DNA of 64,000 nt from Candidatus Latescibacterota bacterium. Lineage in GTDB: Bacteria; Latescibacterota; UBA2968. The notes beneath the pieces were generated by a model, which saw only the letters and a program-made list of their open reading frames with translations, was not told where the DNA came from and did no database searches. Below are positions 32,441 to 35,500 of the stretch, in pieces. Position 1 is the first letter of the stretch, and every line of letters begins with the position of its first letter. The position numbers and the translations under genes are program-made. The stretch lies in NCBI GenBank assembly GCA_965205975.1, contig OZ242195.1, forward strand, positions 1,984,001-2,048,000, in the 5' to 3' direction.

Positions 32441-32530
32441 TGAAAAGTGAGAAGAGAGAAATCCACTCAATACCTCCCCAAGGCGGATGCTTCTTCACCT
32501 TCACACTTCTACCTTCACACTTCACACTTC
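32428..32530. repeat. Inverted sets of degenerate heptamer repeats (AAGAAGT/GAAAAGT versus TCACACT)
   Basis: aagaagt aagaagt gaaaagt gagaag...tcacact tctacct tcacact tcacact; the last units overlap the stop codon of the RNAP-like gene. Confidence 0.6.
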
Positions 32531-35500
32531 CATCGGTAACCCTACAAATAACCGGCTATACTCATCCGTCAATGGATCGCGCTCGCCCTTTTGCGCCGCT
32601 CGGGCAAATACCACACCAGGTGTATCCGACCTGCGCGCCCGCGCAAAAACGCCATACCCACCTGGCGCACTCTGCGTTTCCAGATCGCTTTGAATTGCTA
32701 TCATCTCTGCCAGCGCATTGGCCAAACCCCAGCGTGCACCAATCGCCCGCGCAAAAAGCTCCTCTGGCGTCAGCCCCTCTCGAAAACCATGCTTCAGAGG
32801 CGTAAACCTACCCTGATCATTCCGCGTCACGCCCTGGGGAGCCACATAAAGTCTAACCTGTTGCCAATTGGCACGCGCACCGCATTCCACCAGAAGCGCG
32901 GGAATCCCGAGATCATCGTCGTCATATCCGCGAAATCGCGCCAACACAGCCGACACCTCATCGGGATAATCGCGCCAGACATCTGGATCATCCCCCTCTG
33001 GCGGATCGGGCCAATCGAGCGACGAACCGATAAACGCACTCATCGAAGCCCCTGTCTTGCGCGCGGCATCAAACCCTCTATCCCACAATCGCGCAGCCAG
33101 ATCCAATGCAGCCTTCGCGCCATCGCGCGCCATTGCATCTGCCATCCAGCCCATCACCTGATACTTATCTACAAATACCCCCTTTCGCTCAACCTCATCG
33201 CCGACAATCTCCAAAATCTCCTGCAACCCCTCGTCCGTCATACTCATATACGCCAGGCCAAACAGCGCGTCGTGCATCGGGTGTACCTTCTCCCGCGCAA
33301 TCAGTCCCGGATCCCGAGTCAGGTGCGCCACCGCCGACAGATGTTCTTCAGCTGACCGCTGGCCTTCTTCGGTCACCGGCACAAAAATCGCCACCTGATC
33401 GCCATCAAAATCCATATCCATCATCTTGCAAATCGCCACACACACGCGCACTGCATCCCCCGCCACACGCACCGGATGACACGCCACAAAAGCCATTGGC
33501 GAAAACGCGGGTCTGCGAAGCACCACAACCCACAATTTAGCCATAGCTGCATCCAGAGCTTCCTCTGCTTTTCTCGACCGCCTATCCACTTCTTTAGCCC
33601 CCACCTCTCTCGCTGCAAACGGCCCAAACAACGTCCACGCCATTTCTTCGGGCACACCGACCTGATCGTATCCCAATTCGGGTGCAGGCACAGCCACCGA
33701 ACGTCCGCTGAACAACGCACGCGCCTGAAATTGCAAACGCGACAACTCGCAAAATGCGCGAACTCGCCCAGACAGCGTATCAACCGCGCGATGCACCAGC
33801 ACATCTGGTGCGCCATTGGCAATCATCTCCTCCAATCGCTCATTGGCCTCTCGCAATGCTCCGGGCACATCTCTCCCACTCACATGTGTCAACGAATGCC
33901 CCGGTAGCCACGGATGCGGAACCGAACGCGCAAGCGCGACATCCCCACCGCCTTTCAACGAAAACTCTACGCCGCGTTCATCCAGTTCAACAGCCACCCC
34001 ACCCTTTGACAAATGCCCAATTAGCTCATCAAACTGAGGGGACGGCATAGCGGGAGCAACAGACCCCGCAACGACGCGGTCAGCCAGAGTATCGGCATCA
34101 TCTCGATCTACCGCGCACGTATTGAACAAATCGCCAATCACCCCAAAAGCACCCGCTTCTCGCAACGCCAAAAACTCTGTCTCGCCCAATCCCTGGCTTC
34201 GCTGATCTAATTTTACACTTACGGGAACGGCTTGGCGTAGATCCGCGGCGGTTTGACCCAACTCTCGATCTCGTTTCCCCGGCTTCACACCAGCCTGAAT
34301 TTTATCCGCCGCCAAATGCACCGTGCGTCCCCAATACACCCACCCTACAGTGGTGCGACGCGGTAGCGTTTCCCCATTCAGCGTCAGCGTCTCCAGGCCA
34401 TCTTCTGCCAGCCCTGAAGCCCTCAAACGACCGCGTATCTCATCATCTTTGGGCGCATTGAGCGCGGGAACAATAACCGGCTCTCCCTCGGCTTTTGCAA
34501 TGCGCCCTGCCACTGCTTCGCGCACCTGCCCAATATTCAACCGCGACGGCAAACCACACACACTCACAATAAGCTCCACAGGCGTGCGATCCGATAACCT
34601 CGGCATCTCTTCATCTCGTACGATGCGCGACACCACCCCCTTAAAACCGTGCCGATTGCTCAGTTTATCGCCCGGCGCAACGCGATTGGGCAACATCATC
34701 CGGTTCGCAGCCGACTCGCTGACCACAACTGCATCTTCGTGTGTATCACCATTCCACGCCATAAAGGCGGTCAGCAAATTGTACCCCGTCCAGAAATGCG
34801 GATCGCGCGGTTCACACCCCGTTTGCACCAGCGCGGGTTCCGACTCCAGTAACTTGCCGTCATATTGCGCGTGATACGCGTGCCACACGCCCTGCTCATC
34901 GCGCTGCATATCGGGACCCGGCGCGCCAATCCACTGCCGCATCATATTCACGCCCATCAAAACGCGATTGGTATCATTGTGTTCCAAAAACGGAACCACC
35001 GAAGCACCTATGCCCAGCCGCTTTTCAGGCGCATCGTCTTCAATCACCAGCTTGCCATCGCGAATAGTCGCCCCTTGAGCCACCTCTAAAATCCGCGCGA
35101 GATTCGGTCCCTCGGGCGTACAATAAGGACACACGCGCCCATCGTGCGAAGGATGATAGCAATTCTCTATCCCCTCATCGGCCTCACCGATAATTGGGAT
35201 CAACGTCACCCGCCGCAAATGAACGGACATATCCTGCAAATTGGTCGCCTGCAAATACTGCGATGTGGGTTCTTCTGTAAAAAATGCGTGAATCCAATTT
35301 CCCAACAGCAACCATGTTTCAACGGTATCTCCCAGCATATCGGGCATATTTTCCAACCGCTCGGCGATATAATCGCGCAGTTGCTCACCCACACATCGAA
35401 TTTCAGCACGCGCCAAATCCACATCAGTCGGCGCAGGAACCACCGTTCGAAAAAAGCCATCTACCTTAAACCGCCCCCATTCGTCGGGCTGAGGAATATT

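Follow-up and report, generated by a model that had tools for sequence, protein, structure and literature searches.

On the minus strand of a 64,000-nucleotide stretch of DNA from a Candidatus Latescibacterota bacterium (GenBank assembly GCA_965205975.1, contig OZ242195.1, positions 1,984,001 to 2,048,000; this whole stretch is called the window, and positions are counted from its first letter), two genes lie together. The first encodes an extracytoplasmic function (ECF) sigma factor (35722..36342; Pfam Sigma70_r2 and Sigma70_r4_2) and the second, directly downstream of it, is an open reading frame (ORF; 32522..35710) for a single-chain miniature β-β′ RNA polymerase (RNAP), further referred to as the mini-polymerase; all features of this gene given below are on the same strand. 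A terminator-like hairpin of 14 pairs followed by a T-run (32395..32427, minus strand), found by a consensus scan, closes the two-gene unit, and a second terminator-like hairpin (36460-36487), between the sigma gene and the gene at 36519-37469, bounds it upstream. The locus is chromosomal, and the genome consists of one 5.56-Mb contig. The trigger loop is regarded as a catalytic and fidelity element common to all cellular RNA polymerases. A sequence-only reading of the ORF had drawn attention to its apparent absence and to an Asn-to-Asp substitution in the catalytic motif. We show below that it is the first of these that deserves interest, a trigger loop lost throughout a family of selected, sigma-coupled miniature RNAPs, and that the Asn-to-Asp change is an ordinary polymorphism.

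The ORF list and translation give one open frame of 1062 amino acids from a GTG codon, which runs without a stop through both a β and a β′ part, β first. Since homologues align from residue 11 onwards, the true start is likely M11 at 35680, resulting in a protein of 1052 amino acids. Pfam domains of both subunits are found in the same chain (Rpb2_3 at 151-209, Rpb2_6 at 344-473 with E-value 3e-37 and Rpb1_2 at 728-789 with E-value 2e-13), and the closest sequence relatives of known structure in the PDB are bacterial β chains (E-value 1.6e-42) and β′ chains (E-value 3.5e-24). Matches of this strength are not due to chance. The same genome holds a normal rpoB (1257 amino acids) and a normal rpoC (1363 amino acids) elsewhere, and the ORF is therefore an extra, fused and miniature paralogue. 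An AlphaFold2 model of the ORF has a mean predicted local distance difference test score (pLDDT) of 94.1 and a predicted template modelling score of 0.93, and is low in confidence only at residues 1-8 and 481-500. In a structural search against representatives, residues 6-578 of the model superpose on Xanthomonas β (Z 27.4, root-mean-square deviation 2.9 Å, 528 aligned residues) and residues 576-1062 on M. tuberculosis β′ 5..1260 (Z 17.0, 3.0 Å, 475 aligned). With Foldseek the top matches in the PDB were only bacterial and plastid RNAP β chains, and no closer single-chain structure was among them. One element is specific to this genome, namely a 24-residue insertion (residues 482-505; 34196..34267) that appears as a gap in a BLASTP comparison with the 92% identical relative P0002. 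It sits in the loop after H465...K470, has a pLDDT below 50 at 481-500, and is skipped by a metatranscriptome contig that otherwise spans the mini-polymerase gene.

As read from the sequence, the active centre is intact: DxDGD, the β-side Glu-Asp pair, two lysines, the Arg-x-Pro loop and the arginine of the CGARAN block are all in place. Residues 760-775 align without gaps to E. coli β′ 453-468, and the motif D765-M-D767-F-D769-G-D771 (33398..33418, direct reading of the sequence) is the equivalent of NADFDGD (β′ 458-464), so that the alignment, the three Mg2+ aspartates and the Asp in place of Asn458 reported earlier are indeed present. Conservation was counted over 95 family representatives (alignment A1), tree and triad counts over 178 full-length members. 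The metal triad D767, D769 and D771 is kept in 92/95, 93/95 and 92/95 representatives, respectively, and is intact (DDD) in 171 of the 178 full-length members. On the β side, E325-D326 (E. coli β E813-D814; 34733..34738) is conserved in 85/95 (E) and 90/95 (D), and the basic motif G347-D-K349...R353-H-G-F-K357-G (E. coli β 1063-1074; 34637..34672), located in a region covered by the match of the family hidden Markov model (HMM) to E. coli β 1054-1148, in 89/95 (K349), 95/95 (R353) and 91/95 (K357). H354 (91/95), R390 of the PSR motif (94/95), H465 (88/95) and K470 (82/95) follow the same pattern; the β-side ED, both lysines, PSR and H...DK, noted before as retained, are all present and conserved among the representatives. 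On the β′ side, the CGARAN block (consensus SGARG) with the F-loop region (residues 943-980, E. coli β′ about 727-767; 32771..32884) was located with the family HMM, which matches β′ 713-792, and with hhalign; its arginine R946 is kept in 87/95.

The sugar-selection loop had been read one register off, as RRPA for NRAP. BLASTP against the genome's own RpoC, the family alignment and hhalign all place L731-R732-R733-P734-A-F (33503..33520) opposite E. coli β′ N424-R425-A426-P427-T-L, so that the Arg and the Pro are kept and only the Asn424 and Ala426 positions differ from NRAP. R732, the equivalent of Arg425, is found in 83/95 representatives and P734, the equivalent of Pro427, in 85/95, while position 733 is A in 62/95 and R, as in the window, in 5/95.

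The substitution at position 765 does not stand as a meaningful remodelling of the active site. Asn is found there in 59 of the 95 representatives, Asp in 24, Glu in 5, Gln in 4, Gly in 2 and Ser in 1, which makes NADFDGD the family consensus; all 21 closest relatives (P0002-P0022, 88-92% identical) have Asn, and the next ones (P0023-P0027) have Asp. On a FastTree tree of the 178 full-length sequences, built with the active-site columns excluded, this position changed state at least 32 times in total, with 19 or more switches between N and D. Because Asn is both the consensus and the residue of all closest relatives, the Asp cannot define the function of the family, and Asp765 appears to be a tolerated lineage-level variant, a polymorphism rather than a signature or a change of mechanism. 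What is unusual is that a position fixed in cellular RNAPs varies freely in the mini-polymerase family. A compensating basic residue at position 733, balancing the charge of Asp765, was considered and rejected. The raw table has K or R at 733 in 9 of 39 Asp bearers compared to 3 of 112 Asn bearers, but under phylogenetic control, over 17 phylogenetically independent pairs, position 733 was mostly unchanged (median p 1); P0002 has N733.

The substitution and the loss of the trigger loop could together relax sugar selection, allowing the use of dNTPs or mixed substrates in a DNA-polymerase-like role, comparable to that of the archaeal polymerase PolD. According to PMC7862312, Arg425, Asn458 and the trigger-loop residue Gln929 are the universally conserved contacts of RNAP to the 2′-OH, and two of these three are affected here, Asn458 being Asp and Gln929 missing; moreover, 3 of the 178 full-length members carry the NxDGD motif typical of PolD (motif as given in PMC7708050). 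In E. coli RNAP, Arg425 is the main 2′-OH selector: R425K costs 17-fold in selectivity at the binding step and 25-fold at the incorporation step, whereas N458S costs just 4-fold, at binding (PMC7862312). Since the Arg425 equivalent R732 is kept, together with P734, dNTP use is unlikely; furthermore, the loop is of the R-x-P type of RNAPs and not the P-H-T steric gate that PMC7708050 describes for PolD, and Asn remains the family consensus. Acceptance of dNTPs, as proposed from sequence alone, was hence weakly founded, and we regard such a role as very improbable.

The absence of the trigger loop, by contrast with the Asp, was borne out and proved to be conserved throughout the family. The family HMM matches E. 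coli β′ 267-516, 586-640 and 713-792 and, weakly, 1321-1354, with nothing in between. When the family was compared by hhalign with E. coli RpoC aligned to the genome's own RpoC, one match resulted, of query 615-1004 to β′ 266-791 (probability 99.95), which ends in the bridge helix. Neither method finds a match of the family to E. coli β′ 793-1320, a range that includes the trigger helices (taken as about β′ 913-942 and 1131-1150), and no GEPGTQLTMRTFH-like motif is present in the ORF. The bridge helix itself (residues 982-1013; 32672..32767) is a DSSP helix in the model, is reached by the HMM and hhalign matches up to β′ 791-792, and is less conserved in sequence within the family than in β′. 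From its start at R993 to the invariant R1024 the spacer measures 27-45 residues (mode 31) in 95/95 representatives, and the tail beyond R1024 34-51 residues in all 95.

In the window's protein 49 residues follow the bridge helix, rather than the about 60 estimated before, and the model shows there only three short helices (1021-1027, 1031-1041 and 1050-1056), with no long helix and no diverged trigger helix to be seen. These residues form a conserved C-terminal block (residues 1016-1058; 32537..32665) directly after the bridge helix, at the place where β′ has its trigger loop, jaw and insertions, with R1024, A1025, P1031, G1032, A1038, A1039, E1043, D1045, L1047, R1053 and G1057 near-invariant. 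The block aligns weakly with E. coli β′ 1321-1354 by HMM, and the superposition of residues 576-1062 on β′ 5..1260 identifies it as the β′ C-terminus and not as a diverged trigger helix; the likeness to the β′ C-terminal region that had been noted therefore holds. A trigger loop supplied in trans was also considered and found no support, as Rpb1_5, the Pfam domain that bears the trigger loop, occurs in this genome only in the canonical rpoC and no third conserved neighbour gene exists across 80 related loci.

Other parts of the cellular core have been lost as well. On the β side the family HMM matches E. coli β 118-148 (weakly), 474-580, 652-707, 790-821, 1054-1148 and 1177-1341, so that the flap (about 830-1053) is wholly gone and the lobe for the most part; the absence of the flap follows from the HMM jumping from β 821 to 1054 and from only about 20 residues separating D326 from G347. 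The first about 265 residues of β′ have shrunk to a short segment with a PHPW motif, which matches β′ 76-128 weakly and contains no cysteines, the zinc-finger cysteines thus being missing. Rudder and rim helices (about β′ 641-712) remained unmatched by the family HMM and by hhalign against β′, and so did the jaw. By profile comparison, the family as a whole has lost the trigger loop, jaw, rim helices, flap, lobe, zinc finger and rudder, and has retained switch 2, the fork loop, a region at the position of switch 3, the clamp helices, the CGARAN/F-loop region, the bridge helix and the C-terminal block. The clamp helices (residues 617-653, E. coli β′ about 267-309; 33752..33862), where the HMM and hhalign matches begin (β′ 266-267) and where the model has helices at 617-631 and 636-653, are the predicted docking site for sigma region 2.

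The partner sigma factor is the second constant of the locus. Of 80 related loci, 66 have its orthologue adjacent to the mini-polymerase gene, the two genes often overlapping by 4 bases, and another 12 have it on the same strand at a distance of 0.6-2.5 kb upstream, which amounts to 78/80; in the other 2 no sigma orthologue was found. Neighbour clustering over the 80 loci returned only two conserved families, the polymerase (80) and the sigma factor (79). Four of the spaced loci were opened: in L007, L012 and L020 a frame of about 600 residues separates the sigma gene from the polymerase gene, and L030 has no such frame; the gap frames L007:3177-4967 and L020:3032-4789 encode an ABC half-transporter (Pfam ABC_membrane and ABC_tran), a gene that is not found in the window. 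A model of the sigma-polymerase complex scored 0.62 compared to 0.00 for the best control and places sigma residues 26-67 on the clamp helices at 618-645, with runs agreeing in at least 29% of contacts and a partner pLDDT of at least 65. Among solved complexes 116 of 157 attain this mark, among mismatched pairs 2 of 215; because ECF-sigma holoenzymes have already been solved, the pass may reflect likeness only. The linker between regions 2 and 4 of the partner sigma (residues about 95-140) is unusually conserved in alignment A2 (RRRREQPLE...VPGWMID..ALGPD). In normal ECF holoenzymes this linker extends in the direction of the active centre and RNA exit.

An ECF-type promoter-like motif, TGAACC-N14-GGTGTC, was read from the sequence upstream of the sigma gene (36338..36363, minus strand), and 26 of 30 non-redundant loci, spread over several phyla, have TGAACY-N13/14-GGTGTC in front of theirs. 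Since the motif overlaps the mechanically assigned GTG start, the sigma factor probably starts at TTG 36315, behind AGGAGG. Elsewhere in the genome the exact motif recurs twice, at 385266 (+) and at 3584673 (-). The promoter is closely preceded by TTCATCTGC(A/G) in three tandem copies (36380-36409), the 20-mer occurring 21 times in the genome, and a purine-rich repeat lies just past the polymerase stop (32498-32531). Many unrelated metatranscriptome contigs stack on both, to a summed depth of up to about 1100 compared to 5-100 over the two genes, and the two look like dispersed short repeats flanking the operon.

The mini-polymerase gene is under purifying selection, with a ratio of non-synonymous to synonymous substitution rates (dN/dS) of 0.11-0.20 compared to 12 relatives over 1026-1050 aligned codons. 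This bears on the proposal that the protein lacks catalytic activity and mimics RNAP to sequester or buffer its sigma factor, in the manner of a decoy or an anti-sigma factor. Such a role would suit the tight pairing with sigma in 78/80 loci, the predicted interface between sigma region 2 and the clamp helices, and the existence of members with a broken Asp triad (7/178). For a decoy the clamp helices alone would suffice, yet about 85-100% of the 95 representatives retain the triad, both lysines, the NTP-contact arginines and the bridge helix, and the low dN/dS extends across the whole 1028-codon alignment. The near-invariance of the catalytic residues and this selection disfavour the earlier suggestion of a non-catalytic protein, and we find a decoy improbable.

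The family comprises 343 cluster representatives at E <1e-30, fragments included, and a relative is encoded in 527 stretches of a species-representative genome collection. Relatives come from genomes labelled Latescibacterota, Poribacteria, Gemmatimonadota, several Chloroflexota lineages, Planctomycetota and Chthonomonadaceae. In the sample of the window's own phylum 51 of 151 genomes carry the family at E <1e-100, in its own genus 19 of 19; the gene is accessory and patchy, not universal. Genome G062, of the same family, appears to carry two mini-polymerase copies (C1:1427405-1430593 and C1:3368597-3370099). A phage or plasmid origin was considered and rejected, as none of the 33 phage and 68 plasmid records matched by tblastn had at least 80% query coverage, the matches listed all being on canonical rpoB-rpoC. 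Contigs of four metatranscriptome runs, from three studies, cover the copies of both genes in close relatives, mostly at 90-99% likeness.

The patchy distribution can also be taken together with the missing parts in another way, as pointing to a poorly processive enzyme of short products, such as primers, abortive-length RNAs or signalling oligonucleotides, and not of transcripts of messenger length, for which the sigma factor and the host RNAP would only switch the gene on. With the lobe, jaw, rudder, flap and trigger loop, the enzyme has lost what holds the RNA-DNA hybrid and the DNA downstream, the sole convincing copy of the promoter in the genome is the operon's own, and the gene is accessory, being present in 51/151 genomes of the phylum sample. 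Conversely, the clamp helices are kept and the complex with sigma is predicted to form there, switch 2, the bridge helix, the fork loop and the region at the switch 3 position are retained, and YonO is processive without trigger-loop homology (PMC5467207). We consider an enzyme of short products, and with it the earlier suggestion of a primase or oligonucleotide synthase, unlikely though conceivable.

The reading that we favour, and hold to be fairly probable, is that of a one-chain miniature fusion of RpoB-like and RpoC-like cores without a trigger loop, in which the residues contacting metal, RNA and NTP are kept; it is predicted to polymerise RNA, likely together with the sigma factor encoded upstream. 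By analogy with YonO, catalysis would proceed without a trigger loop, and the NTPs would be held only by static residues of the two barrels, namely R732, D/N765, R946, R249, R390 and the lysines. Ribose selection would then rest on R732, and Asp765 would be able to accept a hydrogen bond from the ribose hydroxyl. Following the same analogy, fidelity may be lower and intrinsic or Gre-type RNA cleavage absent. Initiation would take place with the partner sigma, through its region 2 and the clamp helices. With the trigger loop lost family-wide, a slower or less accurate enzyme is a reasonable expectation, and to this extent the earlier suggestion of a slow or low-fidelity enzyme stands, an enzyme without intrinsic proofreading being expected. 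The rate itself is not predictable: trigger-loop closure speeds catalysis about 10^4-fold in cellular RNAPs, and its loss costs about as much in E. coli RNAP (PMC7862312), yet YonO is fast.

Several points weigh against this predicted activity. An enzyme of cellular descent that lacks the trigger loop could be very slow, and the activity of every family member is a prediction. The flap, which holds sigma region 4, and the lobe and jaw, which hold the downstream DNA, are missing, and promoter-directed processive transcription is therefore not assured. It is only by sequence and modelled secondary structure that a substitute element, reaching the active site from another part of the chain, is excluded. 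The triad is broken in seven full-length members (P0068, P0090, P0095, P0053, P0126, P0137 and P0194), three of which are those reading NxDGD. The exact promoter motif has 3 copies in the genome compared to 1 in a reversed-sequence control, only the operon's own copy being convincing, so that the search for a regulon of the exact motif in this genome gave no convincing target beyond the operon itself. Finally, the metatranscriptome contigs are only a hint of expression, as the libraries may hold DNA and the contigs give no strand, ends or level.

A broader claim, that a sigma-directed, trigger-loop-free RNAP of about 1050 residues whose active-site Asn is free to vary constitutes a widespread and unstudied second bacterial transcription machine, we put forward more tentatively, as possible but somewhat short of an even chance. 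A clear descendant of β and β′, under purifying selection and present in several phyla, has lost the trigger loop in every member, and with it the flap, jaw, lobe and zinc finger. If the mini-polymerase is the enzyme we take it to be, the trigger loop would be dispensable in a polymerase of cellular descent, and this would be the smallest known sigma-dependent RNAP. An active mini-polymerase would moreover be a natural experiment on the minimal core for sigma-dependent transcription, would bear on fidelity and sugar selection without the loop and on why Asn458 varies once the loop is gone, and, with a chain of about 115 kDa, a sigma factor of 22 kDa and a defined promoter, would offer a compact orthogonal transcription module.

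Further genes surround the two-gene unit. Upstream, 36519-37469 (minus strand) encodes a protein of 316 amino acids with no significant Pfam match (DUF790 below threshold, E-value 0.007), and 37456-38496 (minus strand) one of 346 amino acids with a C4 zinc finger of the DksA/TraR type; conservation of these two genes is confined to 17/80 loci, those of close relatives. The mini-polymerase lacks the rim helices, which DksA-type factors use on normal RNAP. Directly downstream of the terminator, at 31548-32258 (minus strand), a PIN-domain protein (154 amino acids) follows a 78-amino-acid ORF, which looks like a VapBC-type toxin-antitoxin pair. Further on, 28558-31352 (minus strand) encodes a BlaI-type repressor (Penicillinase_R), then an 802-amino-acid BlaR1/M56 peptidase fused to four TonB_C domains, and then a 605-amino-acid HEAT-repeat protein.

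A full-text literature search found no description of this bacterial mini-polymerase family, although an earlier in-silico mention is possible, and the main text of PMC7826278, on the reclassification of ECF sigma factors, nowhere mentions 'RpoB', 'RpoC' or 'beta subunit'. Among two-barrel polymerases in general, the mini-polymerase shares DxDGD on one barrel and two lysines with an arginine on the other. Archaeal PolD DP2 has such a core too, with an acidic and a basic motif; according to PMC7708050, its acidic motif is NxDGD and its P-H-T steric gate for dNTP choice occupies the place of the RNAP R-x-P, whereas the mini-polymerase has DMDFDGD and an L-R-R-P loop, and the structural match reaches only Z 7.2. 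Also weaker than the structural matches to β and β′ were those to QDE-1, a structural relative of YonO (Z 12.2), to phage P23-45 gp96 (10.1) and to crAss gp66 (7.1).

K2ORF6p, the RNAP of a yeast killer plasmid (a virus-like element), resembles the mini-polymerase, by description, in being a β-then-β′ fusion in one chain of about 1000 residues. Its authors called this fusion unique among RNAPs (PMC6211774), lid, rudder and rim helices are reported missing from it (PMC6211774; PMC2919709), and Ruprich-Robert and Thuriaux could detect in ORF6 no homology to the trigger, to switch 1 or to switch 5 (PMC2919709). The killer-plasmid enzyme is eukaryotic, cytoplasmic and encoded on a linear plasmid, and a second subunit, K2ORF7p, is described as carrying the β′ C-terminal regions. 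In contrast, the mini-polymerase keeps the C-terminal block in the same chain, has no conserved second subunit across the 80 loci, is chromosomal and has an ECF sigma partner.

YonO, from the B. subtilis prophage SPbeta, is likewise a single-chain, two-barrel enzyme, of about 100 kDa, that shows no homology to the trigger loop; it is fast, processive, error-prone and without RNA cleavage (PMC5467207). YonO-like proteins bear a remote similarity to multisubunit RNAPs and are without the extra β-side carboxylate (the equivalent of Rpb2-E836) according to PMC2919709, whereas the mini-polymerase keeps E325 (85/95) and is strongly similar to β and β′, by which description it is set apart from YonO. 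It is also full-length on no phage record, and no sigma partner is known for YonO (PMC5467207). The closest likeness is to bacterial RpoB and RpoC, with which it shares both double-psi β-barrels, DxDGD, Glu-Asp, the two lysines, PSR and H...DK, at up to about 30% identity in the barrels. It departs from the cellular core in four features: it lacks the trigger loop and the flap, its Asn is not fixed, and its β and β′ parts are not separate subunits but one chain of about 1050 residues, compared to chains of 1257 and 1363 residues in the same genome. It agrees with that core in the R-x-P loop, the bridge helix and the clamp helices. By sequence and predicted structure, the mini-polymerase is a derivative of bacterial β and β′ and not an enzyme of the YonO/QDE-1 type.

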